A DNA stretch of 61,875 nt, counting the filler, from Jimgerdemannia flammicorona (taxonomy: Eukaryota), in assembly GCA_003990765.1 (NCBI GenBank). It is 3 parts of 3 records of this genome, joined end to end, with 100 filler letters (N's around TTAATTAATTAA, not from the genome) between each part and the next. Parts side by side here need not be neighbours in the genome. Positions count along the whole stretch, not along the records: positions 1 to 20,564 come from RBNJ01001651.1; positions 20,665 to 41,220 come from RBNJ01001652.1; 1 more part is not named here. The stretch is one strand, 5' to 3'. Positions 2,365 to 49,961 of this stretch are shown piece by piece. The position numbers were made by a program, and so were the translations under genes. The notes beneath the pieces were generated by a model, which was not told the DNA's origin, did not search any database, and saw only the letters and a program-made list of their open reading frames with translations. Within the stretch, counting starts at the first letter, position 1. Each line of letters opens with the position of its first letter.

Positions 2365-3917
2365 TATAATGGTGACCTCAGAATAATGATATCAGCACAG
2401 AAGACAGTCTTTCCTTACAAGTCACCAGATCAGAGCACAGGAAGATTATATGACATAACTCATCTGGGCTATAAAATAAGTAATAATGATCAACTATGAG
2501 TCATTGTGACCATAAGACAGACATCTCAAGGAATATAAAAGAAGGATCAAGGAACTGCAGTAGCAGCAATCTAAACAAAGCTTACAGAAATAGTTCTAAA
2601 GACTTATTATATATAAAATGCCTACTGCTTGCCAAACCTCAAGGTCCAGGAATCACCAAGGCCTCTCAGTCCAGGATAGGATATTCTAAGACATCCAAAG
2701 AGCTATGAGGACCCATATAAGAAAGACTCCTAGTGTCAACCTGAGTACTAGTGACCCCTATCATTACATCCTCTACTACCATGAAATGGAAACAAGAATC
2801 ACCATCACTACTGAATGCCTCTAGATATAGCAGAAGTATGAAATAGAAAACCTCCTTTACTGGAAATTCCCTCAGGCCAGTCACCAAGAAATACAAGATA
2901 CTACCCTTATGAATGTATGTAAAATAAGAATAGCTAAGAAGATTCATTACGTCTTCAGGTATGTATTATGATCAATCTCCAACTTAAAGTACACTAGGAT
3001 CTCAGACTTCAAGGAACTGTCAGCTCACCACACCAATGCACTGGAGACCATGGTAGTTACAGAAGCCCAGTCTACTATCATCCTCAACAGTGGTGAGATA
3101 GGAGAGTTCTGGAATCCCATCTTCGAGGACAATCCTGATCAATTCCTATAATAATTGATCTCAGTATTCCAAGGCCCCAGTATCTGGATTTGATCTCTCC
3201 AGGACCCCACATTTGTTTCTTATTTTGTAGAAGAGAATGTCATAGATTGGAGAGCCCCAGACCTCCTTGTTCTCCTCACTACTGAATGTGATAATGTCAT
3301 TGGTAATGATGTCATCCCACACAATATACACAAAGTATATGAAATACATAACATATATAATGAGATAGATGAAATATTCACAGATCTCATCTCCTTCAGC
3401 AGTGATGAGGATGAAGTCTCCATAGTCTTGAACATTCTGCTTTAAGTTCTTGGTAATACCAGATTTAATCAGCATCCTTTTCCTGTATAACTATTATTCT
3501 TCTGGTATTCTTTTTCTATACTACTGAAATTCTACTAATATCCTGAACTTGGTATAACTATTTATATAGATACTTGAACCTATACTTACAACCATAGTTT
3601 TCTGTGTTTCAGTATTTTATTTAGTTATTAGAATTTATATTTAGCTTTATAACTTAGCAACTATTGAATTATATTTTGTATAAATATCCCTCTTATTTTC
3701 TTTGAAATAAAGTCAGTTTCAGTTCACTTATACTCAATTCTATACAAGCAATCTAAGAGATAACAAGACAGTTTAAAGATAAGAAGTTTGAGGACTATAA
3801 GACCTTGGGAAGGTACTCTAATAAGAACTTGCTTATAACAAACTTATAGTTAGTCTGAGAGATATACCTTAGAGAGAATCTGATATATTTAAAAGACTCA
3901 GTGACTACTATATAATA
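2365..3917 (+). repeat. 5' LTR (~1553 bp)
   Basis: Aligns end to end with 9599-11171. The termini are decayed to TA...TA. TATA-like GTATAAATA at ~3678. Confidence 0.88.
2618..3445 (+). pseudogene. LTR-embedded accessory ORF, 5' LTR copy (276 codons)
   Basis: ATG at 2618 (MPTACQTSRSRNHQG) to TAA at 3445 (LNILL*). Same 828-nt length as the 3' LTR copy; interrupted by nonsense transitions. Confidence 0.7.
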
Positions 3918-3973
3918 ACTTAGTGCCCATTGACTAGTGATTTAAGATGAATCTCTTACTTTCAAGCTAAAAA

Positions 3974-6900
3974 ATGAATAACTACCACAATAACTACTCT
4001 GACTACAAGAGTCACTCTTATAAGAATTCAAGATAAGATAGAAATATACCCCCCCACATTCTATAGATATACTACTGAAGAGTTAATCCTGACCTTTATA
4101 GAAGACTTTGAACAATTCACTACTATATAAGCCCTTGATGTAGATGTACAATTGGCCCTTCTACCTGTCAGCCTCAGAGAACCTACCAGAGATAAGTTCA
4201 ATATAGCTATCATTGCTGATGCTAGTGCAGCCAAACTAGCCAATATGAAGAACTTTCTCAGAACTATATACTATACTGAAGAGATCAAGCAAGCTCTCAA
4301 GAATTAACTCAATACTATCTGTCAGAAACTTAGTGAAGATCCTAACTCATTTTATACCTAAATCTGCTATCAGATTGTCTTGACTGACTATGATGATACC
4401 CTTAAGGAATAAATAGCAGATTCAACCTTTCTCAAAGGAGTTCATCCTAAAATTGCCCTAGCAATCTGGTCTACCTCAGCTGCTCTGACCCTTGACCAGA
4501 AAGTGGTCTTTGCACACTACTAGATACTCTGCTGAATACTTAATAGAGAAAATAACTAGTATTAAGATAGTACTATCAAAGCCAATCAGTATTATACTCA
4601 CTATAGTTGTAAATAGACAACTATTCTCACCTACTCCCAAGACAGCCAAAGCTGACCCAGTGGAGAAACTCACCAAGCAGTTTGCTAAGATGACTACACA
4701 CCTTGGTAATATTGTTAGAGAAGTCTGAAGCACCAATAGGAGACCAGTATAGAGATTTACAGTTACTACAGAAGAATACAATATCATATGCTTCAGATAT
4801 AAAGAAAAAGGCCACTATATAAAGAGTTATATGATGGAAATAAAACACAAGACCCAATCTAGTAATGCTATAAGAACTAGAGAATAAACCAATATAGTAG
4901 TTATTGAGAAGATTGGTGATACTGATGATGAAGAATACTATAAAGAGTCTGAATTCTATCCTGTTACTGAAGATACCAGAACCCAGTCTAAGCCCTATGA
5001 CAAGAAGAACAACAATAAGCCAGTTGGAAGTCCAAAGAAGACTCCAGCTATTACTATTCAAAGCAAGATCCAATCTGAGGAGATTGATCAAGATATAGAG
5101 TTAGATAAAGCTGCTTACTAAATTATTGAAAGCACTACTCTAGTCTCAGGAGAAAGTGAAAGCAAGAAAGAATAGAAGCTGCACAAGACTAAGATCCACT
5201 AGTATTATATCTACAAGAACCTTAAGGAACAGAAGGTCAATACTACTTTTGAACAACTAGCCAAAGTCTCTGCCTTTAGATAGCAGTTGAGAGTAGGACT
5301 TACAACTACTATCAAGAATCAAGAGTATAAGATTGTAGAAGCTCATAATACACAAGAAGAATCTGAAAACTCAGGTGAAGAATCTGAAGACTAGCACAAG
5401 ATATCAGCCTATATTCTATATTAGATTGAAGATTGTATCTTTGATACTATCATTGATACTAATACTAGAGGATGACTCATGAGCAAGAAGGCAATTGACT
5501 ACCTAGGCTGAGATATTGAAGAGTCTATCAAAATAGTCTATGTTACAGTAGATAGCATACAAGCTACCTCTCTAAGCAAGATCTGAGAAGTCCCCATCAA
5601 GATTAGAGGAGCTACCATCTCAGTAAACATAATTGTTATAAGTGCTACTAACTATAATATTCTCATTAGCAATCAATGGCTTCACAAGGCCAAGGCTATT
5701 ATTAATCTCAATGCCCAGAAGATGCAGATCAACTATAGAGAAAGAAAGGTACAAGTCTCTATCAATATTTATAAAGAAGTACTATCAGACATAGAGAAAG
5801 GAGATGAAGAAGATATAGAAGTCTTCATACACTTGATATACAAGAACAAGAGCAAGACACCCAAGCTCACAGATGAGTAGTAGTATAATAAGATCATTAA
5901 TGGCTATATTCTTCAAGAAAGATGTCTCCATGGTACCAGGATGTACTGCTCTAAACATCTGAATGACTGCTGGTCCTATATCAGTAAAGTCAGAAAAATC
6001 TACCAATAAAAGTATAAGCAAGAAGCTGCTGAAGTAAAAAGGGAAGCCAAAGAAGATGACCAGCCCCCAGAGCTTCAAGCTGATAGTGATGATGAGGAGG
6101 AACAAGAACCAGACATCACTCTCAAGATCAAGAAGTTTTACCCCAAAGCTAAGATCCCAGAATATAAGACTGAAGGAGCTATAGAAATGGACCTTGCTAG
6201 TATTCAAGATGCTACCCTTGAGCCACAGACAACCACTCTACTTAATATTGGAATCAGAGTCAAGTTACCAGAAAACTATGCTGGAATCATCAAGATCAGG
6301 AGCAGTCTGGCCAAAAGTGAAATCTCAGTTGAAGAAGGAGTAATTGACCCTGATTATATCAGTGAGATCTTCCTCATAGTTAGGAATTACAACCCCACCA
6401 CTCTATTCAAAGTCAAGAAGCATGACAGGATTGGTTAGATACTAATCTATAAAGTCAAAAAGCCTAAGATCACTGAAGCCATTGAACTCATTAAGACTAA
6501 GAGAGAAGAACAAGATTTTGGATCTACTGGAAGAGGAGCTTATACTGCCACCAAGATTACCAAACTCAAGTACAAGAAAGATAAGAACCAGAATAAGCAC
6601 ACATATATCATTAGAGAAAACTTTCCTCTAAAAGAACAACTTCTCAAGATCCTGCACCAGAATGAAGAAGTACTTACCATAGACTTCAGAGACATCTATA
6701 ATTAAGAACTCAAGTACTATCATAAAGTTGATACCAGCAATACCAAGCCCATCTACCAGAAAGCCAGACCTATACCACCTATCTACAGAGAATGACTGTA
6801 AGCAGAACTCAAGGAAATGGAAGAAGCTAGAAATATCAAGTAAGCTATTAGTCCCTGGGCTTCACTTATTGTCCTTATCCCAAAGAAAGGAAGCAAGCCT

Positions 6901-9263
6901 GAAGAGTTTGCTTCAAAACTCTACATTGATTACAAGAAGCTCAATGCAATTACTAAGAAGGATAGGTAGCTCTTATCAAATATTCAAGAAATCATTACCA
7001 CTCTCAGAAGTAAAGTCAAATACTATACTACCTTAGATCTGTTCTCAGACTTTCATCAGATTGGTCTCACTCAAGATACTAGTGGAAAATCAGCCTTCAT
7101 CATACCTGATGTCACCTATGTCTACCTGTGAATACTATTTGGAATATACAATGTCCCAGCAAGTTTGCAGCAAATGATAAATAGAGTCTTCAGCAATGAG
7201 ATTAGAAAATGACTCTTTATCTATATTGATGATGTGATCATCTTCAGCAATACTATAGGAATATGTCAACTATATATAACTAGCTCTCAAGAAGCTCAAG
7301 GAGTATGGCCTCTACATCAAGTCTAAGAAGTGTAAGTTTATAGCTCAGAAAATTGCCTATCTAGGACACCTCATCAACCAGCCTGGAATTTATATAGACC
7401 CTATGAAGGTTGAGGCTATTGTAGCCTACCCAAGACCCAGAACAACTACAGAAGTCCATACCTTTCTTGAACTGGCCTCTTACTATAGAAGATTTATCAA
7501 AGGATACTTCAATATTGCAGTATCTATCTATAAGCTACTGAAGAAAGAGATCAAATTTGAATAGACCAAGAAATATCAAGAAACCTTCAATAAACTCAAG
7601 ACCAGATTGACTCAAGCACCCATCCTTAGAAGACCAGATTAAAACCTAGAGTTTATCTTGCAGACAGATGCAAGTACTATAGGACTTAGAGTAGTTCTAA
7701 CTTAGAAGAAAGATAGATATAAATATGTCATCTCCTATAAGCCAAGATACCTATAGAGTAGAACAGAACTATAAGTCATATAAGCTTGAATGCTTAGCAG
7801 TAGTTTGAGTAGTAGACAAGTTCTACTACTACCTAGCTGGGAAATACTTTACTTTTCAAACAGACCATTCTGCTCTCACCTAACAATTCTACACTCTGAA
7901 CCCCAAAGAAATATATGCCAGATGGATCTACAGACTGCAAGAATATAACTATACTATCAAGTACTGCTCAGAAAGAACTAATACCAATGCTGATGTACTC
8001 TCAAGGATACTCTGAAACACTCTCATCAAGACTGTTCAATATGAATAAGGAACTATACTATAGATTAATCAGCTATCTTGGGCAGCAGAAGATGCCAAAC
8101 TATCTCAAACCCTGAACTATCACCATTATCAACTAGACTTGGAAATAATTTGAACTAGACAATATTATACTCAGAAAAGGAGAAAAGTTTGTAGTACCTG
8201 AACATAGAAAGTATCAAGTAATGAAGGAAGTATATGAACAAGGACACCTAGGAGGAACCAATATATATGATAAAGTGAGAAGAACTATGTAGTAGTCCAA
8301 GATAAAAGAAGACCTGTACCAATTTGTTAAAGGGTGTAATAAGTGCCAAAAACAGAAACAAGTAGGTATCCAGGTTATCAAGAATTGAGCCTATTCTCTT
8401 CCACTACATCACAATGGATATTATTAGACTACTATCAGTAATACTATCAGAAAACCACTATATTATAGTTATCATAGACCTCTTTACCAAATGAATAGAA
8501 GCAGGAGCATTACAAGAAGCCAATGCTCTCTCTATAGCTGACTTCCTGTACTGAAAAATCATCTGCTGCTATAAGACACCAAGGCAAATCACCACAGACC
8601 ATGGTACAGCATTTGTCAATAGATTCTATAAGATAATGTATTAGAAATACAAGATCCAGCATATCAAGACTACTGCATATCATCCTCAAGGAAATGGACA
8701 GACAGAGAGAACCAATAAGACTCTTAAGAACATTCTGATAAAGATCTCAGACATATATGACAATTGGGATAACTATCTCCCAACTGCCCTCTCTATCCTA
8801 TGAGACATATAGTCACAGAGTATATACTTTACTCCAAGAGAACTGCTCTTCAGAGAAGAAGATTCTAATGGAACCTCAGCTATAAATCTAGACCTAACAT
8901 GGAGATAAGTTGACTCAGAAATCTAGAGACTATATCAAATCAGGAAGAAGGCTGAAGATTATATCATCAAGTCACAAGTACTGATAAGAAAGAATGCAGA
9001 AAAGAATTACAAGACCCTAGAACCCATCCAAATCAGAAAAAAAGTTCTACTATATTGAAATATAGTAGAAGTCTCATAATTGCAAAAACTGGAGCCCAAA
9101 TGAGAAGGACCCTTCTACATACAAGATATTAAGAGAACTACCTTCTGGCTTAGAAAACTCTCAGAAACTATATGTAGTACCTACTATAGTATATAGGAAT
9201 AGACTCAAGAAGTACCATAAATCTATATATATAAGAGAAGCAAAATATAATGACTATCTGTAA
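3974..9263 (+). pseudogene. gag-pol polyprotein pseudogene (Gag-PR-dUTPase-RT-RNaseH-IN)
   Basis: Recognisable motifs: SPWASLIVL, LYIDYKKLN, LDLFSDFHQI, YIDDVIIFS, FLELASYYRRFI, LQTDAS, ADVLSR, AYHPQGNGQTERTN, KLEPK*EGPF. Many stops and several frameshifts. Confidence 0.9.
6120..6535 (+). pseudogene. dut: Trimeric dUTPase domain within pol
   Basis: MDLAS...RSSLAK...GVIDPDY.SEI...DRIG*ILI...R.EQDFGSTG match the five dUTPase motifs. Confidence 0.9.
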
Positions 9264-9564
9264 GGTTCTAGTCTGTGAATTATAACAGCATATCCCATAA
9301 CCAGCAGGCAATCCATCTGGACTATTCTCTAAGAGATATGGCACCAGCAACTACTCATCCATAAGACTTTTGAAGTCAGAAGAGTTTGAACCATCAACTG
9401 ATTGATCAAGATTAGAATCAGACTCTTGCTCTATATGAAGGGAGCAACTCTTCACCATTATGCCAAAATATATAGAGAAGATACTAGCCCATAAATATCA
9501 CTTTTCAACCCTCTGCCAGAGGTTATGGGATCAGCAAATTTTTCAAGACTAGACTAATGAATAA
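9250..9564 (+). pseudogene. Putative small accessory ORF overlapping the pol stop (105 codons)
   Basis: ATG at 9250 to TAA at 9564 in one frame (MTICKVLVCEL*QHIP*PAGNPSGLFSKRYG...LCQRLWDQQIFQD*TNE*). The five internal stops could each be single transitions from CAA, TGG, CGA or CAG. Confidence 0.4.
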
Positions 9565-9598
9565 GAATATTCAATAAGATCCTTATTCAGGAGGAAGA

Positions 9599-11171
9599 TA
9601 TAATAGTGATCTCAGAATAATGACATTAGTACAGGAGATAGTCTTTCCTTATAAGCCATCAGATCAGAGCACAGGAAGATCATATGGCATAACTCATCTG
9701 GGCTATAAGATGAGCAATGATGACCAACTATAAGTCATTATGACTACAAGAAGAAATATAAAAGAAGAATCAAGGAACTATAGTAGCAGCAATCCAAACA
9801 AAGCTTACAGAAATAGTTCTAAAGATTTACTATAAACAAAATGTCTGCCACTCACCAAACCTCAAGGTCCAGGAACTACCAAGACCCCTCAGTCTAGAAT
9901 AGAATATTCTAAGACATCAGAAGAGCTATGAGGTCCTATATAAGAAGGACTTCTAACATCAACCTAGATACTAGTGACTTCTATCATTATATTCTCTACT
10001 GTTGTGAAATAGAAACAAGGATTACCATTACTACTAAATGTCTCTGGATATAGCAGGAGTATGAAATAGGAAACCTCCTCTACTGGGAATTCCCTCAGGC
10101 TAGTCACTAAGAAATACAAGATACTACTCTTATAGATGTACATGAAATAAGAATAGCCAGGAAGATTTATCAAGTCTTCAGGCATACACTATGATTGATC
10201 TCCAACTTAGAGTATACTAGGATCTCAGACTTCAAGGAACTGTCAGCTTACTGCACCAATGTACTGAAGGCCATGGTGACTACAGAAGTCCAGTCTACTA
10301 TCACTCTCAATAGTGATGAAATAGGAGAGTTCTGGAATCCCATCTTCAAGAACAATCCTGATCAATTTCTGTAACAATTGATCTCAGTATTCCAAGACCC
10401 CAGTATCTAGGTTAGATCTCCCCAGGACCCTACATTTGTTTCTTATTTTGTAGAAGAGAATGTTATAGATTGGAGAGCCCCAGATCTTCTTGTTCTCCCT
10501 ACTGCCAAACATGATGACATTATTGATGATAATGTCATCTTATGCAATATATATAAAGCATATGAAACATATGATATATACAATGAGACAGATGAAATAT
10601 TTACAGATCTCATCTCCTTCAGCAATGATAAGGATGAAGCTCCTATAGTTCTGAACATTCTGCTTTAAGTTCTTGGTAACACCAGATTCTACTAGTATCC
10701 TTTTCCTGTATAACTGTTATTCTTCTGGTATTCTGATCTTGTGTAACTCAGAAATTTTCTGGTATTCTTTTTCTGTACCACCAAAATTCTACTGATATCT
10801 TGAACTTATGCAATTATTTGTACAGATACTTGAACTTGTACTTACAACTGTAGTTTTCTATATTCCAGTATTTTATTTGATTATTGAAATTTATATTTAG
10901 CTTTATAACTTAGCAATTATTGAATTATATTTTGTATAAATATCTCTCTTATTTTCTTTGAAATAAAGTCAGTTCTAGTTCACTTACACTCAATTCTACA
11001 TAAGCAATCTAAGAGATAATAAGACAGTTTAAAGATAAGAAGTTTGAGGACTATAAGACCTTGAGAAGACACTCCAATAAGAACTTGCTTAATAAATTTA
11101 TGCTTAGTCTAAAAGATACATCTTGGAGAGAATTTGATATATTTGAAAGACTCAGCAACTATTACATAACA
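9599..11171 (+). repeat. 3' LTR (~1573 bp)
   Basis: Follows the polypurine tract, aligns with 2365-3917, and ends ...cataACA. Confidence 0.88.
9841..10668 (+). pseudogene. LTR-embedded accessory ORF, 3' LTR copy (276 codons)
   Basis: ATG at 9841 (MSATHQTSRSRNYQD) to TAA at 10668; colinear with 2618-3445. Confidence 0.7.
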
Positions 11172-13600: not shown

Positions 13601-14432
13601 TTATTGATAGAGGCTCAATGATATAGGATAGAGAACTGTTGATGATCAATGGACATGGTCAGTTAAAAAAGCAAAAAACGACTTTTTTTTATCATTAATG
13701 TGTGACTGCATTCGTGCTAGAGGCACTGAAGAAGTCACGGGAACAAGAATCGAGTCTTCTGGGTCCGAAGCACGGACATAACCTGTTGAAATATACTTAT
13801 CCTAGCAAAAACATAACCTGTATGAAATATCACGCAGAATTTTCCGAAACTCTGCAAATTTATCAATACTGCTCAAGGATTTCTGAATGGTTAATAATCC
13901 CCATGATCAATAGCGGTGAGCATGAGCGATGAGCGACGGTTGAAGCTGATTTAGATAGCAAACAATACGCACGGAGGATCTTCCTCTGGGCTTTGCTGGA
14001 TGTAGCTGCCTTTAGGGGCCTTGGTGGCTTAAAGGTTTAGGGTCTTCGGGTCTTAGGGACACCAGTTGGACATATGATTTAAAGCATTGGTCCCGAAAGT
14101 CACTTAGGCAGATGTCAATAGAATGAAATCGGAGTTTCCAAACTATCATATTAACATAAGACACCCCCGAGAGTTGGGGGAGCGTCCATTGTACATATTT
14201 CTCGATTATGCGAGTTTAGCAAAACAAACAATAACATATGCTCAGGGTTATTGTTAAACCGCCCGCGTGCGAAAGCTCATTTCGTGTTTAGGAAATAACA
14301 TCGGCAAAGCACTTATTATATTGACCATTACAATAGTCATCGCTGGGAATATTTATGCAATTCTTGAGAGGTTTGGATGCGGCACTTGAATTATTACCTG
14401 AATATTGTGACCCGACTTACTTTTAACATGAA

Positions 14433-14579
14433 GGAAGGTTGCCGACAATAATCGAATTATTCCACCAGGGAGGAAGGTTGCCGACAACAATCGAATTATT
14501 CCACCAGGGAGGAAGGTTGCCGACAACAATCGAATTATTCCACCAGGGAGGAAGGTTACCGACAACAATCGAATTATTC
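14433..14579. repeat. 39-bp minisatellite, 3.8 copies
   Basis: ggaaggttgccgacaacaatcgaattattccaccaggga starts at 14433, 14472, 14511 and 14550 (partial); only two substitutions among copies. Confidence 0.95.

Positions 14580-15365: not shown

Positions 15366-15366
<1 letters not shown>

Positions 15367-15400
<34 letters not shown>
15367..15400. repeat. (AAC)n microsatellite
   Basis: About 11 AAC units. Confidence 0.95.
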
Positions 15401-18511: not shown

Positions 18512-18610
18512 GTTTTGGGTTTCCGTTCTGTGACTTCTCTTGCTCTGATCGTTTACCCAGCTGAGTGAATCGTAGGACAGCAAAAAAGACCAAAAAGTAA
18601 AAATAAAAAG

Positions 18611-29400: not shown

Positions 29401-29478
29401 GAGGAGGGGTAATATTCAGGTTACACAATCTTTGGCAACACTTTCAACACAAGTTTCTGGAGAAAAGCTACTAGTATT

Positions 29479-31508
29479 ATGGCAACCAATGAGCATCCGG
29501 AGGTATGTACTGGGCAGGGTGGCCCTGGAGCATTTGAATGGCAGCAAGTGGGGAGAGGCCCCGGCTTGGGGGGAAGTATAAGGGGCCTGCTGGTGGGAGG
29601 CCATGGTGGAGGAGGGGGTAGAGCTGGAGGTCAAGGGTCTGGCAGGGTGAGCTTTGTGGAGAAGATGAAGGGGGGTCGGCAAGGGGCTGGACTGGAGAGC
29701 TGGCTGCGAGGGGGGAAGATACCGGTGAAGGCTGCCAGACAGCAACCTCTTGGGGGTACCTCTCTGGAGGGCCATCGGGGTGGAGCTGGGGGGGTAGCGG
29801 CTGAGGCGGAGACTGCTGATGGGGGTGTGATGGGCGATCTGGAAAAAAATCTAGATGGGACTGCTGATGGTGAGCCAAATGGTGGGAAGAGCATGAGGCC
29901 AGGGGACCTGGCAGATGGTGTAATGGAACTGGTGGTGGCTCCATTACTCAAGAAGTCGATCTTGGTATTCGCAGTCACGCTGTGTTTCCGGGGCTTAGCG
30001 GTGACAGCGAAAATGGTGTTGGGGCTTATCGCTAAGCAGGTGGCTGGAGCGGCTTCGGTGAAGTTCCTGAAGGGACTGGAGGGGGTGGAGGTGGGTTTTG
30101 AGGAGGTCAAACTGCTGGAGGAGGCACTGAGGGTTGGGCTGGTAGTTGGAGAGGTGTGTGTTCCAATGGCAAGGTGTTTGAAATGGGATCCAAGGGTGGT
30201 CCAACTGCTGGTGAAAGGAGTCCCCATGGTGACGGCGATAGAGACAAGGAAGAGAGTGGAGGATGTTATGGCAGAGTATGGCGAGGTGGTGGATATCAGA
30301 TTCAGGGTCTGGGAAGGGACCACACTCAGGACTGGGGATGTGGATGTGAGGATTCGGCTGGCCAGAAAAGAGGCTACTGGGAAGACAAGGGACTGGCCTT
30401 CGGCGATGGTTTGGAGTGCATTCCTATACAAGGTGACATGGGTGAAAGGAAGTGAAGAAGAGGAGGAGAATTTGTTGGAAGCACTGAAGGAGCTGGATGG
30501 GGCTGTGGAATGGCACGCCAAGGCCTGGAAGACTTTCAAGGAGTCGACACACCTGGAGATAGTGGATGGGAAGAGGATTCGAGTAGACAAGGTGCAGTGG
30601 GAAAGAACTCAGGGGCGGAAGAGGCAGAAGAATCTGCTGGCTAAACTGGGGGGTGGACCACTGAAGGATGCGAGCATGAAGACAGATGCAGAAGGGGCCA
30701 GAGCGAGTATCTGGGCTGGTGAGAGGAGTGGGAATGATGGGGCAAAGATAGGGAAGGCAAAGGAGGTGACAATTAGCGACCCATATGCAGATGGCACCTT
30801 GGAGGTTTGGGAGGAAGTCTGGGAGAACTCCCCCACCCCTTCCCCTCTTATCAGGCATGGCCCGGCTTCCAGGAACAAATCTGGGGAGGATGTGACAATG
30901 CTGGGGACCCAGCAGGTGAAATTCAGCATTCCGGAGGTAATGGATGGGGACCAGGTAGTGGCAGCTGGGGAGGAGGAACTGGTGGATGTCCCGGAGGTGT
31001 GAGATGAGAACATGAGTGCTGGAGCTGACACCATGATGCTGGATAGAGGGAGGCCGGTGACCCCTGGTGGAAAGGAGGTGGGAAACCTACTTTGGATGTG
31101 CCGGATGATGAACAACCTGGCGGCAGAAGAGCTGGGGGGGTGGACTTGCATGGGATGGGTGACGAGCACTGGGTGAGAATTTTGCATGAGGAAGGAGTGG
31201 TGATGGTACTGAAGGCAGAAATTCTCGCAGTATATCTGGAGGAGGAAGGGTATGAGGTGGACAAGGAGAGGGAGGCAGAGTTGGCGGTTGTCACTGGGGA
31301 GAAGGCTGAGTACTGTTGGAACAGGCATCATGGGCTGCAGCTTTGGCAGGAGGCTTGCATCGAGTACAGAGAGGAGTTTGAGGAGAAGGCTGATGAGGAG
31401 ATGAATGAGCTGTTGGCTGGACTGGAGGCTCAAAGGGCTGAAGAGGAGGAGGTGATGGCTGAACACAATCTGGACATGGTACAGGAGGAGATGGGCATGG
31501 AGCAGTAG
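29479..31508 (+). pseudogene. LINE ORF1 (~676 codons; one stop at 31000, 1-bp deletion in the G-run at ~31134-31140)
   Basis: The 507-aa ORF contains an RRM-like segment (LLVKGVPM...AEYGEVVDIRF...TGDVDVRIRL). Comparison with the older copy joins 31003-31508 to it, and the terminal TAG is shared by both copies. Confidence 0.75.
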
Positions 31509-31538
31509 GGATTGATTGCGAACAAACTATATTTCATT

Positions 31539-34500
31539 ATGAACAGTACAACTAACATTTTTTCTTTGAATGTGAATGGGCTAAGGGGCACAGTTAGATG
31601 CAGGAACATTTTTATTTGGTTGAAGGGATTGGAGGCCAATCTCTTCCTCTTGCAGGATGTCAGGTGTAAGGATGATTCTGATAGGATGGAATGGACTAAG
31701 GAATGGGGTGGTATGGTGATTTGGAACAGCAAGGTCGGGATTCTGGTTTGGAAAGGCAGAGGGGAGATACAGAATGTGAGGAGCTGGGGGGAGAGACTGG
31801 TCTGGGGTGAGTGGATTCATGCAGGTTGGGAGCCAGTTACAGTTGGCTCCTGTTACTGCCCTGCTGTGTGGGAGGAGCATGTGGATTAGGTGAAAGGGCT
31901 CCTGGAGAGTGGGATCCTTGCTGAAGCTGGGTTGGATATACTTGGAGGCAATTTCAATATGGTTCGGGATGTATGGCTGGATAGAACCAATGGAGAACAG
32001 GGTGCTGAGAGCAGGAGTGGGGGGCTGGCAATGTGGGAGGAGGTCGAAAGGCTAGGAGTGCTAGTGGATACTGGTAGAGAATACTGGGGGGACAGGAGGG
32101 TATATACGCATTGGGCTGGAGGTCTGGGAACAAGGATTGACTGGATTCTGTTGGCCAACTATTGGGGCCGCAACGTTTGGAAGGTGCTAGAGGTAGAATA
32201 GTGTCTGTGGTCAGACCACTGGGGCCTTTTGGGACAGGGGTGTTTTGGGGGAAGTGGTGATGGGCCTGGACATTGGTGCCTGAATTCCTCCTTGTTGGAT
32301 GATGAGTCCTAGTGGGAGGAGTGGGCAAATGACATTCAGATGAAGGTGGTGAATTGGCAGCAAGAAGGGGCCACAATTGGGGTTCGGTGGAGGAGGATGA
32401 AGGAGATGGCCAGGATGTATTGGAGTGAGGCTGGCAGAGTGGCTGGGAGGCAGCAAAGGCAGAGAGTGCATTGGGCTTCTACTAGATTGGCTAGGCTTCT
32501 GGAGGAGTGGGCGAGTCTGGCAGTAGTGGAGAGAGAAGAGGATTGGAGAATAACAAGGGTAAAGATGGAGGTTGGGGAACTACAACAGGTGTTGCGGGAA
32601 GAGGAAGAGTCAAGGGTGCAAGGCCTGGTGGTATGGCTTCATTAGCAGGGGCTGGAGGAAGGGGAGAGGCCTTCTAAGTTTCTTATGAGGACACTTTGAG
32701 CAAGAAGGGTATAGCAGCAGTGGGAAGAGGTACTTGACTCAGATGGTAGACTAGTGCATGGTGTACAGGATATCCTTGGAATGCTGAAGGTGTGATGGAG
32801 TGGATTGTGGAGTGAGGAGGAGGGTGGGGCAGATGCTACAGCCATTGAACAAACATTAGAAGATTGGCACCCTCCGTGAGCTAAGGGATTAGGTGACCTG
32901 GTGATGTCTGTAAAGGAGGATGAGATCCACCAGGTTCTTGCTGCGACAGTCTCAGGTACGGTGCCTGGGGAGGACGGCCTCCCCTGGGACTTCTGGAAGC
33001 GAATGGTTGGAGTCCCGGGCATATTGGGAGAGTTGATGGTACTGTGTGACTCCATATTGCAGTCAGGGAGATGGGTGGGGGAGCAGGATCTTGGGCTGGT
33101 GATACTGCTTTATAAGAACAAAGGCAGGCAAGAGGATTAGAAGAACTGGCAGCCGATAATGTTGCTAGATATAGACAGAAAGTTGGTGACTAAGGTGGTG
33201 GTCGCAAGGCTGCAGAAAGTGGCCCAGCAAATTATAGGAGTTGAGCAGAGGGGCTTCATAGGGGGTCGGCTTATTTGAGATGGCATGGCCTGGGTGCATG
33301 GAGTTATTGAGGGTGCTTGAGCCTGTGGACTGGATGGGCATCTTGTCTTCTTGGACCAGGAGAAGGCTTATGACTGGGTGCAGCGAGTCTGGCTGGTGAA
33401 AGTGTTGGATAGGATTGGGTTTCCAGTCCCATTTCGGGTGGTGATGGTCAGCCTACTGGAAAGGAGTAGGGCTGTGCTCGTGTGTAATGGGCATAGAGGG
33501 GTAGCATTCCCTCTGGGTAGGGGAGTGCCCCAGGGGGACCCACTGTCTCCCATTTTGTATGCACTTTCCTTGGAGCCTCTAATGGACTGAATTTGGCAGA
33601 GGATTGTGGGGCTTTCTATCTATGGAATTGGCTGGAAAGTTGGAGCCTTTGCAGATGACATGGTGGTTGGTTTGGGAGTAACTATGGATGTCAAGGAGCT
33701 CAAGGAGACAGTGGAGTGGTATGAGGAGAACTCTGGGGCAAAGCTGAATTGGCATAAGTGTGAAACAATGGTGTTAGGCAATGGACTGGTGGGCAGAGAG
33801 GTTATTGGAACAATTGTCCCCACCGGAGAGGCGGTGTGGTACTTGGGCATATATCTGTCAGTCTATGGGTCTGTTCTGCCCAGACTGTGGTGGGAGCAGA
33901 GGATTGGAATTTGGGAGGAGGACCTGTGGGGTTGGGGGGGAAGACACTTCTCTCTGGCAGGAAGGATCTCGATTTTGAATGTATCCTGGCTGCCGAAACT
34001 GTGGTATTTGGCTTATCATCTGGACTTTCCAGCCTGGGTGGTGAAGCAATTGGTGAAGGTGACCAAGAGATGGATTTGGGCTAGCAGACAGAGTCAGATT
34101 GGTTGGGAGATGCTGTCCCTACCGGTGGTGAGAGGTGGTCTTGGGCTGGTGGACTTCCCCAAAAGACTACACTGCTTGAGGGCATGGTGGCTTAGGAGGA
34201 CAGTAGAGTTGCATGGAGGGGGTTGGGTTCCCCTGCTGCAGAAGGTATGGGAGAGACAGACATTACCAAGAGGCTTGACTGGTGATCTTCTTTCATTAGT
34301 TGGGCTTCAGAACACTGGGCAACTGCGATATAAAGGCTTCTGGTGGGGGATAGCTGAGGGGGCATACCATATTGGTATTCGCTGGCAAGGGGATGAGGGG
34401 GAGAGGCCTTGGGGCCCGGCGATGTGGAGATGGGATGGCATTCTTCTGGGAGGCATGCCTTTACTGAAGTTCGACATTGGTGATGGAATCGAATGCCAAA

Positions 34501-34583
34501 GGGGACTAGGCCAGGATCTGTGGCCTAGTGGTTGGCAAGGAGTCGGAATTGGGGAGGAGTGGGACTGGCAGGGGGTTGTCTGA
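31539..34583 (+). pseudogene. LINE ORF2: APE endonuclease + reverse transcriptase
   Basis: IFSLNVNGL, FLLQD, GGNFN, RIDWIL, SDH; GERPSKFL, PGEDGLP, DQEKAYDWV, GVPQGDPLSP, FADD, YLGI, GGLGL. Scattered in-frame stops. Confidence 0.93.
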
Positions 34584-36479
34584 GGGGAGAAGATTCAGAG
34601 GATACTGTTGATGACAAGTTCTGAGATAGCACTGGGAGAAGATAGCTTATCTTGAATTTTGGAAAAAAGATAGCAGGAGTTGAGCTAATTTTGGAGAAGA
34701 TAATGGAGATGTGTGAGAGAGTTATTAGTTCAAGAGAGTGGATTATAGGGTAGCACTTAAGTCTTATGACTCTGCTGTTTAAGAATAAGGAGAGAAGAGA
34801 GGAGTAAAAAAACTAAAGACTGATCATACTTCTAGATATGGATTACAAGTTGGTAAAAAGATACTAGTAGTAAGACTGCAAGGAGTAGCTCAGCAAGTAC
34901 TGGGGGCTTAGCAGCAAGGATTTGTAGAGGGATATCTGGTCAGAGATGGGACTACCTAAGTATATAGCATCATTGAAGAGGCTTGTGTCACTGGGGTAGA
35001 TGGATGATTGGTCTTTCTAGACCAGGAGAAGGCCTATGACAGAGTCCAGCAGGTGTGATTGAAAGGAGTGCTAAAGCATATAAGGGTTCCCCCAGGGGTC
35101 CAGCAGGTCTTGGTCAGTCTGCTAGAAGAGAATCAGGCAGTAATTTTAGTAAATAGCTAAGAGGGATTTCTTTCCCTCTAGGCAGAGGAGTGCTGTAGGA
35201 GAATCTACTATTATCAATCTTATATATGCTATCCCTAGAGCCTCTTTTGGATAGGGTTTGACAAAGAGTGGAGGGGTTAGATATTCTGGGGTTAATTGGA
35301 AGATGGGGGTCTTTACTGATAATATGGTATCAGATTAGAGTTAGCAGAGGATATAGTGATACTAAGAGATACAGTAGAGTAGTATGAGGGGTACTTGAGT
35401 GCTAAGCTCAACTGGCATAAGTATGAAACTTTGATATTGGAAAGAGAGATAGTTGATAGGGACATAATTAGAACAATTATCTCTATAGGAGAGGCTATTC
35501 ATTATCTGAAGATCTACTTCTCAGTATATAGCTCTCTGTTATCTTACAGATAGTGGGAGTATTTGGCAGAGTGGGAGAGTACTCTTTAGGATAGAGTGAT
35601 CATTATATATCTCTAGTAGAGAGGGTGATGGTACTGAATATATACTGATTGTCTAAGCTGTAGTATCTGGAATATTACTTGAACTTTTCAGCATAAGTAG
35701 TCAAGAGATTATTAAAGATGGCCAGGACCTAGATATGGGCAGAGTGAAGAAGTCAGATTGGCTAAGAGATATTTTGATCTTACTAGTAGACCAGAGAGGA
35801 CTGGGTCTAGTGGATTTTTCTAAGTACCTTTATTACTTATGGGTATGATAGCTGAAGTGAGCTAGTAAGTTAAGGAGCAGAGAGTGGATTTCTCTTATAC
35901 AGAGAGTATGGGAGGCCTGGTTCTCCCCCTGTGGTACAACTGGGTATCTACTGTCACTGGTAGCTTTGAAGAAGAGTCAGAGGATGTGCTTTTGAGGATT
36001 CTAGTGAGGGATGATCAATGGGGTTCACCATATTGATCTCTAATAGTGGGATGATGAGGAGAAGGAGGACTGGGGATCTCAGATATAGAGGTGAGACCAC
36101 CTTCTGTTAGATAGAGTACCAGTAGAGGACTTCTGCTTAGAGGATAGCATGGAGTGTCTACAGGAGTATAAGAGGGATCTGTAGCTAGAGATATGGCAGA
36201 GGGTGGAGATTGGAGAGAAGTGAGATTGAAATAATATTTGGTTGTAGAGTAAGCAAGTAGTGAGATGGATTTCTTTCAAGTTTTGAGTAATATGGTAAAG
36301 ACTCCTATAGTATAATATAATGTTGAACTACTGGCCAGGTTACTTGGTGGAAGAAGGTACCTGGGAGTGTGAGGAGTGTTTGAATATTAAGCTAGAGAGG
36401 AGAGTAATACAGATGTCTGAATATTGGCTAGGAGAGTGTGAGGTGATAGAGGACTTCTGAAGTATAATTGAGGAGCATA

Positions 36480-37804
36480 CTATATATCTATTACAAGTTA
36501 CATATATATATCTAGATCATATTTGAATAATTCAGTATGAGCAAATATAAATCTGTTAGAACACCTATAGAGATATCTGTAAGACTAAAGAAGTCCAATA
36601 CTATGTCCAAAGATAATGACATTTTCTATTGAGATCTCTTATATATCTTATGCTTGAGATGAGGCCCAATATATTATATACAGTCAACAAAGTAGTACAG
36701 TACTCATTCTGTTATAATAATTTATATTAGATGGCAATTAAGTATATCTTCAGATATATCAAATATATAGCATACTGTATACTATATTTAAGTAATGATA
36801 ATGGATCAAGTGGGAACATTATAAGATTATCTGATATATATAATACAGACTAGGCTGGAGATCTTGATGATCAGTACTCTATAACTAGATATCTTTTTAA
36901 AATTAGTAAAAACAGAGCTATTTTATAATAAATATATAAATAATCTTCAGTAGTAATGTCATCTATATAAGTGGAGTATCAAGTATTGTTGATAGTAATG
37001 AAGGAAGCTATATAGTTTTAGAAGCTACTAAAGGAATTGAGATACAATCAACAGTACTCTATACTACTTCAATAAGAGAATCAGTCTATGATTGCTATGG
37101 CAAAGAACCATATATATCATACTAGAACAAAGTATATTAATATACAGTATCATTTTATATAAGAATATATGAAAAATAGTACTATATATCTAAAATATAT
37201 CCTAATAGAGTATATAATAACAGATTCATTGACTAAAGCTCTTTCAAAGATAAAGTTTAACTTATGTAAGACTCATGAGTAATTCTGTAACAGGTAACTC
37301 TATGTCAATAGGAACTATATGTCAATAATCAATATTCAAGTATTTCAATAGAGATCACAAAACTTTTCAAACTTCTAAAAGCCTTCCACCATATCTTATA
37401 TATATATTTCTATATTTCTGCATATATTACATATATTTCTATCAATATTGCTTATATTCTTTTATTCTAGATCTATATTACCAGTCTTTTGCTATATTTC
37501 AGATCTATTTTCATACTTATAAGTAGGGAATTTTGATCTTTTCTATTTATCTAGATAGCATCTAGTTGATGATATTTTAGCTAGTCTTTTATTTATATAT
37601 TCTGTATATTCTAGAATATATCTTATTGAGCAGGAATATTGAAATATCTTAGTTATAGCAACTCAACATATAGTGGTGCAGCCTGATCCTAACTATATCA
37701 TTATATAAACATTATCAATATATATAAAAGTACATAAGTTAGCATTAATAAATAATATTCTCTTCTTTTAATTTTCCTCTCTACTCTTCTAGTATTTCAC
37801 AACA
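36480..37804 (+). mobile_element. Ty1/Copia relic, RT C-terminus/RNase H and probable 3' LTR (37637-37804)
   Basis: SLIYLMLEMRPNI, TD*AGDLDDQYS, RTKYINIQYHFI and DSLTKAL are Copia RT/RNase H motifs. A purine tract is followed by TATTG...CAACA (decayed TGTTG...CAACA). Confidence 0.78.
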
Positions 37805-37809
37805 GTATT

Positions 37810-38560
37810 CATGGACTTATCTTTCTGTAAAAATTGGCTATATCTAAATATATTAGAGGCCATGATGGTCTGTCCATAAGGTAAATGTTTTGCTGAGAAG
37901 AAAATATCTCTATACTTACAGAGATCAGATGACAGTAAGGAGTTCCTTATCTTGTATAGTATAGTTTCTTTTATATTTTTTAAGTTTTTAGGATAGATAG
38001 GCAATAGAATATTTATATTGAGTTAGAATAACTATTTGAGATATCAGTGATAACTATATAGAGTTTAGTTAGATTAGGACTAATCAAAATTAGTATATTA
38101 GTCAGTATTCTCTTAAGGATATTTATAGTTATAATAATTTCTTCTATCTATTTTTTGTTAATATTGGCTCTCTTCTTAGCAAGGCTTATAAGTGGGGTAG
38201 TAATTACAAAAAATCCTTAAATAAATCTCTTATAATATTCTACTAGTCTATTGAATCTTTATAGAGACTTAAGGGTCTTTAGGATGAGCTAATTGTGGAT
38301 TGCTTGAGTCTTCTTGAGATTGACAGTAATACTATTTTCTGAGATAATTTATCCTAGATATTCAATTTTCTTCTTAAAGAAGTAGTATTTCTTTTTTTTT
38401 TTTTACTGAGAGCTTATATTTATAGAGTATATTAAAAATTATTCATAGGTGTTGTTGGTAAATAATACTACTTATACTATACACCAGAATATCATCCAGA
38501 TAGACCAGATTGAATACTTTGATATATTTATGAAAAATGTCATTTATGATCTTTTCTTCA
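37810..38560 (-). mobile_element. Ty3/Gypsy RT-RNase H fragment
   Basis: The minus strand gives ctggtctatctggatgatattctg = LVYLDDIL at ~38484-38508, followed by K.IEYLG*IIS. Confidence 0.7.
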
Positions 38561-38564
38561 GTAT

Positions 38565-40030
38565 AATTCAGATTACAAAACTTCTGACAATACTTTCAAT
38601 ATCATTTTTAGAGAAAAGGTGATAATAATATGGTGACTGATGAGCAATTCAAGGAGCATGCAGAATAGGGCAGCTTTAGTACATTTGACTGGCAGTATGT
38701 GGAAAGGAGTTATGGCTTGGAGGGGAGTCTATTGAATACTCTCTCTGATAGATAAGAAGGTAGAAGAGGTGGGTCTAGCAGACAGAGGCCTAGGAGAATA
38801 AGTTTTATAGACAAGATCAAGACAGAGCATCCAGCAACTAGATTGGAGAGTTGGCTGCAGAAGGGCAAGAAGAAGGAGAGGGCTGCAGGGCCTGGTAGAG
38901 GGGCCCATAGTAGTAGTAGTAATAGGGTTGGAGGAGTAGAGGCTGGGGGGAGTGAGACTGCTGATAGAGGAGGAACTGCTAATCTAAAAAAAAATTCAGA
39001 TATGATAGCTGATGGTGGAACTGAGCAGGGAGAGTTCCAAGGCCTGGGGATCTGACTAATAGTATAATGGGCCTAATAGTGACACTATTACTCAAGAAAT
39101 TAGTGTCTGAATTTGTCATCATATTGTGCTTCTGGGGCTTGGCAGTTATGGCCAAAATAGTTCTAAGGCTTCTGACTCAAGAGATGAAAGAAGTGATATC
39201 AGTAAAGTTCTTGAAAAATCTAGAAGAAGTAGAGGTGGGCTTTAAAGAGGAAGAGTTGATATTGAGAGCATTGGAGAAGAGAGTGGTAGTAGGAGGGGTG
39301 GTAATCCCTATAGCTTGGTGCTTATGCTAGGACTTCTAGATAGTATAGCTGATAGTGGCAAACATATCTATAGTGAAGAAGAAGGAGGCCAGGAGACTGA
39401 TTGTTGACATTATCAAGTATAGAGATATAGTAGATATTGGATTCCAGGTTTGGGAAGATACAGAGTTCAGGACTAGAGATGTAGACATTAGAGTAAGGCT
39501 GGTGGACAAGGAGAATACTGGGAAAGGAAGAGATTGGCTGACAGTACTGAAGTGAGGACCAGTAGAGTATAAGGTCTCAAAGATGAAAGGAATGCCAGAG
39601 AAGGAGAAGGACTTGCTGGAGATATTGAAAGACTTGACTGGAGTAGTAGAGAAGATACAGCTGACCTAGAAGGAGTTCAAGACTAAGATAGTGATAGAGA
39701 TGATAAATGGCAAGAGAGTATAACTGGATCAGACAGTCTGAGAGAGGGTACAAGAGAGGTAGTATCAGAAAGATTTATTGGCAAATCTGGGCAAGAGAGT
39801 GGTGGGAGAGAATACTGATGAAAGAGTTGAATCAAGGATTAGTGCTTAGACAGAGAAGAAGAAAGTGGCTCCTACAGTGGCCCTGAGAGAGGGTGGAGGC
39901 TCCAGGTAGAGTACAGTGACTGAGAATAAGGTGATGGTAGAGGAGGCACACATATAGTATAGTGTGCCCACAGGAGGGAGAGGACTCAATGAGCTGTAGG
40001 ATATACTGAAGGAGGACTGAGATGAGTGGC
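38565..40030 (+). mobile_element. Third LINE copy, 5' UTR and part of ORF1 only
   Basis: Colinear with 29411-30900 (LLKKLVSEFVIILCFWGLAV..., FRTRDVDIRVRL). Confidence 0.85.

Positions 40031-49930: not shown

Positions 49931-49961
<31 letters not shown>

Follow-up and report, generated by a model that had tools for sequence, protein, structure and literature searches.

Known systems of transposon decay

RID-dependent RIP of the Pezizomycotina, as in Neurospora crassa, is confined to repeated DNA, is dominated by C:G to T:A changes on both strands with few indels, generates many nonsense codons and has CA>TA as its largest single class, and all of these properties recur in the Jimgerdemannia repeats described here. 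The context order of Neurospora RIP is CpA > CpT > CpG > CpC, whereas in our repeats CpG is the fastest to decay and is fully lost, CpC is changed as readily as CpA, and CpT is spared.

In Basidiomycota, arbuscular mycorrhizal fungi and vertebrates, methyl-CpG decay gives a bimodal distribution of CpG observed/expected (o/e) values that separates repeats from genes, and we see the same here, together with the TpG/CpA excess of young copies; however, plain CpG decay does not account for at least 183 of 212 transitions between a pair of LTRs, and these vary with the 3′ base. Horns et al. 2012 reportedly described TpCpG hypermutation of Pucciniomycotina transposons, which is CpG-centred with a 5′ T. 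It shares with our locus a RIP-like transition bias in non-ascomycete transposons, but in the present repeats the 5′ base has a small effect and most changes are at non-CpG sites.

The mutator of the ascomycete Zymoseptoria tritici provides a precedent for non-CpG methylation driving transposon decay; in the parts of the source available to us it is described as a Dim2-dependent, mitotic CA>TA mutator of repeats, DNMT-linked, acting outside meiosis, with >95% of mutations C>T (PMC8016269). It resembles the present case in its confinement to repeats, but >98% of its C>T changes are at CA and CG is spared, while in our repeats CG is the first to go and CC is affected as well. Outside Dikarya, a RIP-like decay has been claimed for Entomophthorales (Zoopagomycota), in the sections of that article available, from dinucleotide indices alone, including a composite RIP index signal (eLife 2024, PMC11105155); our locus invites a similar claim, although here the indices fail and the alignments carry the evidence.

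Repeats and comparator DNA in the window

The window, the whole stretch of 61,875 nucleotides analysed here, consists of three contigs of ~20.5 kb joined by artificial 100-bp N spacers (Table 1). A preliminary description had placed the hypermutated region at 2365..40030, a range that spans an artificial junction because of the spacer at 20565-20664; position 20665 is thus a contig end and not the true start of a copy. One gene in the window is 100% identical to a protein of Jimgerdemannia flammicorona (Endogonales), a direct observation that places the host in Mucoromycota, the possibility on which the preliminary description had based its inference, and not among the ascomycetes. J. flammicorona is a mycorrhizal fungus.

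Table 1. Repeats, genic comparators and spacers of the window.
Feature	Position	Strand	Remarks
LTRx, older partial or solo LTR, same family as old gypsy-like element	1304..2354	-	outgroup; no CpG from 1401 on
5′ LTR, old Ty3/gypsy-like element	2365..3918	+	begins TATAAT; GC 0.35
Internal region, old Ty3/gypsy-like element	3919..9598	+	CpG o/e 0.00
Protease, old gypsy-like element	5587-5877	+	Pfam RVP_2
dUTPase, old gypsy-like element	6010-6435	+	Pfam dUTPase
RT remnant, old gypsy-like element	7280-7561	+	weak Pfam RVT_1 match
Polypurine tract, old gypsy-like element	9589-9598	+	
3′ LTR, old Ty3/gypsy-like element	9599..11172	+	aligned to 5′ LTR, 1544 sites
Old unclassified repeat	11173..13550	.	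CpG-free, GC 0.20; tandem ~153-bp unit at 11773-12080
CpG-normal genic comparator	13600..20564		CASP-type gene on minus strand
Artificial contig spacers	20565..20664 and 41221-41320		
Younger gypsy-like relative, cut by contig start	20665..24766	-	CpG o/e 0.31, GC 0.45
dUTPase, younger gypsy-like relative	21823-22206	-	
Protease, younger gypsy-like relative	22564-22908	-	
Gag zinc knuckle, younger gypsy-like relative	22912-23583	-	
Copia-type fragment	24767..26465	+	CpG-free, GC 0.27
Pol_BBD; weak integrase (Copia-type fragment)	24822-25028; 25272-25523	+	Pfam
Old LINE copy 1, 5′ part	26466..29409	+	CpG o/e 0.01, GC 0.41
Young LINE nested in old LINE 1	29410..34583	+	CpG o/e 0.20, GC 0.54
Young LINE ORF1; endonuclease; RT	29413-30999; from ~31890; 33321-34580	+	
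Old LINE copy 1, probable 3′ continuation	34584..36230 (end approximate)	+	CpG 0.00
Old unclassified repeat DNA	36231..38565	.	CpG-free, GC 0.26-0.33
Old LINE copy 3	38566..40030	+	70% identity to 26470-27690
Unclassified, to contig end	40031..41220	.	GC-rich (0.50), CpG-poor (0.12)
CpG-normal genic comparator	41321..59900		Fz/7TM receptor, Myb, PHD genes
Young inverted-repeat pair	60416-61012 and 61250-61807	.	CpGs retained

The presence of related copies is borne out (LTR pair 83%, third LTR 76%, LINE copies 64-70%, gypsy internals 65%). The segment 2365-11172 is a Ty3/gypsy-like element with protease, dUTPase and RT (Pfam); by self-BLAST its LTRs are 83.4% identical over 1590 columns, and the inverted third LTR, LTRx, is 75.8% identical to 10682-9599, and a three-way LTR alignment was made. 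The 65% figure is that of the younger gypsy-like relative against the internal region of the old element. The LTRs do begin with TA at both 2365 and 9599, but as the third LTR likewise starts with TA, a TG>TA change at these termini is no more than plausible. Segment 34584..36230 has 59% identity to positions 3506-5159 of the young LINE in a transition-tolerant local alignment; the ORFs of 36231..38565 gave no Pfam matches. The tandem units at 11773-12080 differ by 15 transitions and 3 transversions. All of the evidence comes from one window, with alignments for two transposon families and composition for ~21 kb of old repeats.

CpG depletion and its gradient

The repeats are starved of CpG (o/e 0.00-0.33) and the genes are not (about 1.0). 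By kilobase, o/e is 0.00-0.04 at 2001-13000, 25001-29000 and 35001-40000, 0.17-0.33 in the young copies (21001-25000, 29001-35000) and 0.83-1.29 in genic DNA; between 1207 and 13679 there are just two CpGs, at 2950 and 3124. Of the abrupt borders that had been proposed, the one at ~13600 stands, with CpG back to expectation in the first 200 bp, but that at 44400-45700 carries little information, because this DNA is so AT-rich (GC 0.12-0.29) that CpG is barely expected. The proposed gradient among copies is evident at both ends: young copies have CpG at 0.20-0.31, an excess of CpA/TpG (1.25-1.29) and low TpA (0.60), while old ones have CpG at 0, TpA at 1.0-1.2 and CpA at about 1 or below, and GC falls from 0.45-0.54 in the young relatives to 0.20-0.43 in the old copies. 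The young LINE ORF2 is Trp-rich, with 75 TGG against 5 CGG codons (Arg CGG>TGG), and has 13 in-frame stops and no frameshifts.

Transitions beyond CpG

The spectrum, context and strand symmetry of the changes are observed directly in the alignments. Over 1544 aligned sites the LTR pair differs by 212 transitions (96% of substitutions), 9 transversions and 4 indel events (against 221 substitutions, and thus few, as had been noted); the K2P distance has a transition part of 0.16 and a transversion part of 0.006. In short duplicates lying within CpG-normal DNA the differences are 11 transitions to 7 transversions, a ratio distinct from that of the LTR pair (Fisher p = 3e-5); this in-window baseline comprises only 18 substitutions, possibly under selection. 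The decay extends beyond CpG, as claimed, with 183 single transitions as compared to just 14 TG/CA double differences, the class left by plain CpG decay, and TG>TA and CA>TA form the largest class (100 of the 183).

The 3′ neighbour has a strong effect. Taking as context share the differing sites among sites with a C in at least one copy, the LTR pair gives CpA 100/219, CpC 41/98 and CpT 21/223 (CpA versus CpT, OR 8.1, p = 3e-18; CpC versus CpT, OR 6.9, p = 9e-11), and the old LINE pair CpA 89/153, CpC 58/104 and CpT 49/178 (OR 3.7 and 3.3 versus CpT). The per-site rate order is CpG >> CpA ~ CpC > CpT, and the 5′ neighbour has little influence. The direction can be read from the outgroup LTR: where the 5′ and 3′ LTRs differ by a transition (149 sites), it carries C at 93 and T at 52. 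Both strands are changed alike (share changed in LTRs, C 0.36 and G 0.31; in LINEs, C 0.52 and G 0.47), and four tests for strand-coordinated runs found none (p = 0.42, 0.024, 0.74, 0.95). The conversion of Trp and Gln codons to stops is seen in the old LINE copies, each of which has 11 in-frame stops (in 410 and 416 codons compared); 6 and 5 of these face Trp codons, and in each copy 3 face Gln or CGN-Arg codons; the example quoted earlier, GAACTGGTGGTGGC in the young copy and GAACTAGTGGTAGC in the old one, is present in the alignment.

Confinement to repeats

It seems improbable that CpG alone is targeted, with methyl-CpG decay in repeats added to an ordinary, genome-wide AT-biased neutral mutation. 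Unique intergenic DNA is AT-rich too (GC 0.12-0.32 at 13400-13600, 44400-45600 and 60000-60600), so that AT pressure is general; also, the context effect is weak in distant young-versus-old alignments (CpA 0.36-0.40, CpC 0.29-0.33, CpT 0.29-0.32), and a published k-mer screen lacks repeat-specific AT enrichment. In that screen, the genome-wide supplement of Badet & Croll 2025, AT-rich tetramers are at 0.76-0.81 in annotated transposons relative to other non-coding DNA, so that most annotated transposons are not AT-enriched, and the species is labelled 'no_rip'. However, 9 transversions at the ~11:7 baseline predict a few tens of transitions, as compared to the 183 non-CpG ones, and the 3′-base dependence is strong.

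Composition also argues against a CpG-only account. The relative abundance rho*(CpT) lies at 1.34-1.69 in every one of the 20 CpG-free 1-kb windows and at 0.71-1.21 in each of the 26 CpG-normal ones, with Spearman r = -0.93 over the full set of 61 1-kb windows. Old repeats (11.6 kb, GC 0.275) have CpT at 1.50 and CpG at 0.00, whereas GC-matched unique DNA (3.3 kb, GC 0.27) has CpT at 0.91 and keeps its CpG at 1.01; the signature of surviving CpT is thus absent from both CpG-normal and GC-matched unique DNA. We note that rho*(CpT) is already about 1.3 in the young copies and in an unrelated metagenome LINE (L001), so the excess may be partly intrinsic to the elements. Non-CpG C>T hypermutation, confined to repeats by composition, is nonetheless confirmed as real, and such RIP-like decay of old transposon copies is unreported for this fungal group.

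Comparison with RIP

The RIP-like reading holds insofar as C>T change beyond CpG is confined to repeats, but RIP in the strict sense is not supported, because CpG disappears before the other contexts and in full, and CpC is struck as hard as CpA. Canonical RIP, in which premeiotic bursts by a RID/Masc1-type enzyme are triggered by homology on duplicated DNA in each sexual cycle, is accordingly quite improbable, even though the transition excess, scarcity of indels, predominance of CA>TA and TG>TA, mutation of both strands, sharp border of a repeat-confined signal, and stops opposite Trp and Gln codons are all as expected of it. The classical indices do not bear it out: of the 12 repeat segments, 11 have a negative composite index, the exception being 11173-13550 (CRI +0.33). 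Coordinated runs are not found, copies just 59-70% alike are still decaying, and repeats make up about 73-77% of the genome, many of them 95-100% identical to one another, which efficient RIP would prevent. The screen's 'no_rip' score points the same way, and Mucoromycotina are reported, in the portions of the sources at hand, to lack RID (PMC8298701, PMC7862722), and the literature also describes them as free of a RIP signature. A genome defence by non-CG methylation, the other possibility raised in the preliminary description, fits better than RIP proper.

A possible role for methylation

We infer, with about even confidence, that repeat-directed methylation of cytosine, at both CpG and non-CpG sites, followed by deamination, is the most likely cause. 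Integrated transposon copies in this genome undergo C:G to T:A hypermutation on both strands, ending at the repeat border; CpG would be heavily methylated by a DNMT1-type enzyme, and CpA and CpC more weakly by a second activity, perhaps a DIM-2-class enzyme such as is reported in Mucoromycotina, with spontaneous or enzyme-promoted deamination of 5mC acting chronically over the lifetime of a copy and not in a single burst. Phycomyces (Mucoromycotina) has, in the available parts of the source, a single DNMT1 alongside a single Dim-2-class enzyme, with mCG at 2.2%, mCHG at 0.3% and mCHH at 0.5% (PMC7862722). According to a review, DIM-2 prefers CpT (PMC13297926), and we found no methyltransferase preference in the literature that matches a context in which the 3′ base may be A, C or G and T is disfavoured.

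This context lends something to an alternative that is independent of methylation and depends on repeat chromatin, through a heterochromatin-recruited DNA cytosine deaminase or through poor or context-dependent repair of U:G and T:G in which CpT is best repaired; we consider it rather unlikely. The inverted-repeat pair (25 transitions, 3 transversions) matches the LTR pair in transversion divergence (3/547 and 9/1544), yet it has only a third as many transitions and keeps its CpGs, suggesting that intensity varies among loci whose transversion age is similar, as would be predicted from chromatin state, although the transversion counts behind this comparison are tiny. AID/APOBEC-type enzymes are guided by the 5′ neighbour, which has little effect here. 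Since C and G sites are changed alike, pre-integration editing of single-stranded cDNA is ruled out. A dUTPase, which limits uracil in DNA, is encoded by both gypsy-like elements, a hint only in favour of this alternative; the full loss of CpG is most simply due to methylation.

Layout and CpG content of the repeats

The repeats, genes and artificial spacers of the window are listed in the table below. The window consists of three contigs of about 20.5 kb each, and anything that seems to begin at 20665 or 41321, or to stop at 20564 or 41220, is truncated by a contig end; the range of 2365–40030 given in the preliminary description crosses one contig junction. Pfam scans covered 125 of 153 genic and 100 of 164 repeat-region open reading frames, the remainder, mostly overlapping opposite-strand frames, being left out by hand. 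The two contig-end stretches probably represent additional repeat copies whose decay is still at an early stage.

Features of the window, in order of position
Feature	Position	Strand	Description
Contig-end stretch	1–1303		CpG 0.43; no recognised domain
Older inverted LTR	1304–2354		Same family as the old Ty3/gypsy-like element, which it adjoins
Old Ty3/gypsy-like element	2365–11172		LTRs of ~1.55 kb (2365–3918, 9599–11172), protease, dUTPase, RT remnant; from self-comparison and Pfam
dUTPase domain of old element	6010–6435	plus	E = 2e-15
AT-rich CpG-free tract	11173–13550
Genes	13600–20564 and 41321–59900		CASP-type, Fz/7TM, Myb, PHD
Baseline duplications, tandem or near-tandem	14432–16149 and 18459–18657		53–110 bp, 90–97% identical; CpG-normal CASP-gene region
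Artificial spacers	20565–20664 and 41221–41320		Four N runs; each 100 bp is 44 N, a 12-base AT motif and 44 N
Younger gypsy relative	20665–24766	minus	Truncated by contig end
dUTPase domain of younger relative	21823–22206	minus	E = 3e-15
Copia-type fragment	24822–25523
Old LINE	26466–29409, probably resuming ~34584–36230		Interrupted by the young LINE
Young LINE	29410–34583		Nested in the old LINE; ORF2 at 31047–34580
Third LINE copy	38566–40030		Old
Contig-end stretch	40031–41220		CpG 0.12; no recognised domain
Fz/7TM receptor gene	47313–49248	plus	Exon 48445–49248 (268 aa)
Terminal inverted repeat	60416–61012 / 61250–61807
Poly-T in the inverted-repeat arms	60521–60591 / 61682–61702		71 nt in one arm, ~21 nt in the other (plus-strand positions)

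Per-kb observed/expected ratios bear out the bimodal CpG content noticed in the preliminary description, with 0.00–0.04 in old repeats, 0.17–0.33 in the young copies (the gypsy relative and the young LINE) and 0.83–1.29 in genic DNA. The proposed abrupt border near 13600 is also upheld: two CpGs survive in the 12.5 kb of repeat DNA at 1207–13679, at 2950 and 3124, both in the 5′ LTR, and past 13600 CpG is back to expectation within the first 200 bp. A further border had been placed at 44400–45700, but the sequence there is so AT-rich that hardly any CpG would be expected, and this border is therefore uninformative.

CpG loss accompanied by an excess of TpG and CpA, a feature of methyl-CpG decay, is restricted to repeats, the genes having a CpG ratio of ~1.04. 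The composition of the young copies (CpG 0.20–0.31, CpA/TpG 1.25–1.29, TpA 0.60) is the first stage of a decay gradient, and GC content is 0.20–0.43 in old copies versus 0.45–0.54 in their younger relatives. ORF2 of the young LINE keeps a single frame over 3.5 kb with no frameshift and has 13 in-frame stops (seven TAG, six TGA); tryptophan makes up 6.4% of its residues, with 75 TGG codons against five CGG, a profile that decay of CGG to TGG, and then of TGG and CAG to TAG, would give. Part of the young profile may nonetheless be intrinsic to active element lineages rather than the result of decay after insertion: among 186 candidate metagenome stretches there is one locus related to the LINE (L001:1-3199), with a reverse transcriptase 40% identical to that of the window, and its composition is like that of the young copies (CpG 0.20, CpT 1.30, TpA 0.56). 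This locus is too distant to polarise changes and was used for composition only.

The host is a member of the Mucoromycota (Endogonales) and not an ascomycete, the alternative left open in the preliminary description, as the Fz/7TM receptor exon is 100% identical to a Jimgerdemannia flammicorona protein (NCBI naming); its 103 other relatives are from Mucorales, Umbelopsidales, Mortierellomycotina and one glomeromycete. A protein search with a Myb exon yielded no informative taxon. The receptor gene has a weak match to the Frizzled cysteine-rich domain followed by a 7TM region, and several of its 104 relatives across Mucoromycota have Pfam Fz, Frizzled and family-2 GPCR domains.

Substitutions between repeat copies

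The two LTRs of one element are identical at insertion, so that differences between those of the old gypsy-like element arose later. Over 1544 aligned sites there are 212 transitions (123 C/T, 89 A/G), nine transversions and four indel events, corresponding to Kimura two-parameter components of 0.16 for transitions and 0.006 for transversions; as in RIP, transitions between once-identical copies far outnumber transversions and indels together. Ordinary CpG decay acting on both copies produces sites that read TG in one copy and CA in its partner. There are 14 such double differences, against 183 single transitions at sites that are non-CpG in both copies, and the excess of transitions is thus not at CpG only. 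From these 14 pairs and the per-copy loss we infer arithmetically roughly 57 ancestral CpGs in the LTR, in which case CpG decay accounts for about a quarter of the transitions. The substitution-by-context table therefore sustains the earlier claim of decay beyond CpG.

The mutated cytosines are distinguished by their 3′ neighbour. Counting sites with a C in at least one copy, strands collapsed, 100 of 219 CpA, 41 of 98 CpC and 21 of 223 CpT sites differ between the LTRs, such that CpA and CpC both depart strongly from CpT (odds ratios 8.1, p = 3e-18, and 6.9, p = 9e-11) and not from each other (1.2, Fisher p = 0.54). Per-copy loss is ~0.30 for CpA, ~0.26 for CpC, ~0.05 for CpT and essentially 1.0 for CpG. 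The same context pattern is seen when each LTR is compared with the older inverted LTR, and an independent family, the pair of old LINE copies, gives 89/153 CpA, 58/104 CpC and 49/178 CpT (odds ratios against CpT of 3.7 and 3.3). The effect of the 5′ neighbour is slight and inconsistent, and a CHG-type symmetry is ruled out, as 24 of 60 CAG but four of 40 CTG sites differ.

The direction of change was read from the older inverted LTR as an outgroup, majority-rule polarisation of the three LTRs having been discarded because parallel changes confound it. Of 149 transition differences between the LTRs that the outgroup covers, 93 have C (or G) in the outgroup, 52 have T (or A) and four have some other base, in a setting where T/A sites exceed C/G sites by ~1.7 to 1; the 52 T/A sites fit parallel C to T changes at hot sites. 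Alignments of young against old copies (59–63% identity, transition-tolerant scoring) give 0.29–0.40 C to T and 0.10–0.21 T to C changes per site with a weak context effect, and we regard these alignments as close to saturation, with a possible bias from the scoring. C and G sites have similar changed shares, at 0.36 and 0.31 respectively for the LTRs and 0.52 and 0.47 for the LINEs. The process therefore acts on integrated double-stranded DNA, and no strand-coordinated tracts survive four runs tests (p = 0.42, 0.024, 0.74, 0.95). Editing of cDNA by an APOBEC-type enzyme before integration is excluded by this strand symmetry and by the weak 5′ effect; moreover, the existence of differences between the LTRs of one element means that the changes post-date integration.

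The terminal inverted repeat retains CpGs and has 25 transitions and three transversions, with changes at approximately 9/24 CpG, 9/71 CpA, 3/30 CpC and 4/50 CpT sites, three TG/CA pairs having been reassigned by eye. Its transversion divergence equals that of the LTR pair (3/547 and 9/1544) whereas its transition divergence is one third, which hints, on small counts, that mutation intensity varies between loci. We note also that the poly-T tracts of its two arms differ in length.

Confinement to repeats

If CpG, CpA and CpC are lost selectively, the cytosines that remain should be those in CpT. The symmetrised CpT/ApG odds ratio is 1.34–1.69 in all 20 CpG-free kb, 0.99–1.38 in 14 intermediate kb and 0.71–1.21 in 26 CpG-normal kb (Spearman r = -0.93 over all 61 1-kb windows), and CpG loss combined with the CpT-survivor signature occurs in 20/20 repeat kb and 0/26 CpG-normal kb. 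Each class of old repeat, taken separately, shows the CpT excess (1.50–1.66).

One alternative is that CpG decay is simply joined by ordinary AT-biased drift. However, unique 100-bp pieces with a GC content below 0.36 (3.3 kb, mean 0.27) have CpT 0.91, CpG 1.01 and TpA 0.95, whereas old-repeat pieces selected in the same way (11.6 kb, GC 0.275) have CpT 1.50, CpG 0.00 and TpA 1.15. AT-richness therefore does not explain the signature, and we consider CpG decay plus such drift improbable. Four short duplications in CpG-normal DNA, a tiny baseline possibly under selection, have 11 transitions and seven transversions, as compared with 212 to nine in the LTR pair (Fisher p = 3e-5). All three indirect tests agree, and the hypermutation appears to be confined to repeats, as judged by composition.

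Relation to RIP and other mutational systems

Canonical RIP would account for the dominance of transitions, the scarcity of indels, the involvement of both strands, the restriction to repeats (seen here in composition, with a sharp border at 13600), the nonsense codons, and CA to TA as the largest class of change. The order of contexts is different: the CpA dominance of RIP is absent, CpG changes fastest and is wholly lost, CpC is hit like CpA, and CpT alone is spared. The classical thresholds for RIP are a high TpA/ApT, a low (CpA+TpG)/(ApC+GpT) and a composite index above 0. The composite was positive in one of 12 repeat segments (11173–13550, +0.33) and from -0.01 to -1.07 in the others; CpG decay replenishes the CpA/TpG pool, so that the substrate index stays high, and published index and k-mer screens would miss such a process. 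The supplement of Badet & Croll 2025 lists J. flammicorona as 'no_rip': it counts 23 k-mers as enriched in the non-coding DNA of the species but finds no k-mer enriched in its repeats, and it gives AT tetramers of 0.76–0.81 in annotated TEs relative to other non-coding DNA. These genome-wide values are evidence that most annotated TEs are not AT-enriched and hence that efficient RIP is absent. PMC8298701 and PMC7862722 describe Mucoromycotina as without RID, with none in Phycomyces. We regard canonical RIP as improbable, and of the RIP-like interpretation offered earlier we retain a non-CpG, repeat-confined process outside Dikarya but not membership of RIP, given its context order and indices.

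Mutational defence against TEs has been seen as an ascomycete speciality, with a CpG-centred variant in some basidiomycetes: Badet & Croll 2025 limit RIP-like signatures to Ascomycota, and Dallaire et al. 2021 report none in Mucoromycotina. An index-based suggestion of a RIP-like process has been made for Entomophthorales (PMC11105155), and we found no prior claim in the literature of RIP-like mutation for Jimgerdemannia or Mucoromycota. In Zymoseptoria the Dim2 mutator changes C to T at CA and spares CG (PMC8016269), whereas here CG is fully lost and CC is also hit.

Possible mechanisms and implications

Methylated repeats classically leave a footprint in which CpG is lost entirely and the borders are sharp. 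Our preferred explanation, which we give about even chances, is cytosine methylation targeted to repeats and followed by deamination, in which CpG would be methylated heavily and CpA and CpC more weakly, with deamination of the methylated cytosines yielding the C to T changes. This route is favoured by the CpG footprint together with the DNMT1 and Dim-2-class enzymes reported in Mucoromycotina and the low non-CG methylation of Phycomyces (PMC7862722), and by the Dim2-dependent, mitotic, repeat-confined C to T mutator documented in Zymoseptoria (PMC8016269). Against methylation as the cause, a context of 'not CpT' agrees with no methyltransferase preference that we found; DIM-2 prefers CpT according to a review (PMC13297926), and the Zymoseptoria mutator leaves CpG alone. 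A chromatin-linked deaminase or context-dependent repair seems rather unlikely. No entry for Jimgerdemannia was found in the supplement of the CDCA7-HELLS paper.

The observation of hypermutation is confirmed and extended here, with evidence from one window. We tentatively propose, though we think it on balance doubtful, that Endogonales may carry an unrecognised repeat-targeted cytosine mutator, a functional analogue of RIP outside Dikarya, that mutates C before A, C or G and spares CpT; it would have evaded screens because CpG decay refills CpA and TpG and because heavily mutated copies drop out of repeat annotation. If so, mutational silencing at the DNA level either predates Dikarya or arose again, and it would be clear that screens based on indices and k-mers overlook such a process. 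It would also bear on how transposons age and are inactivated in a genome of 230–240 Mb that is three-quarters repeats; two reviews (PMC7928374, PMC10386755) put its size at about 240 Mb and its repeat content above 77%.

Both gypsy-like elements carry a dUTPase domain between the protease and reverse transcriptase, which may be relevant in a host that deaminates repeat cytosines.
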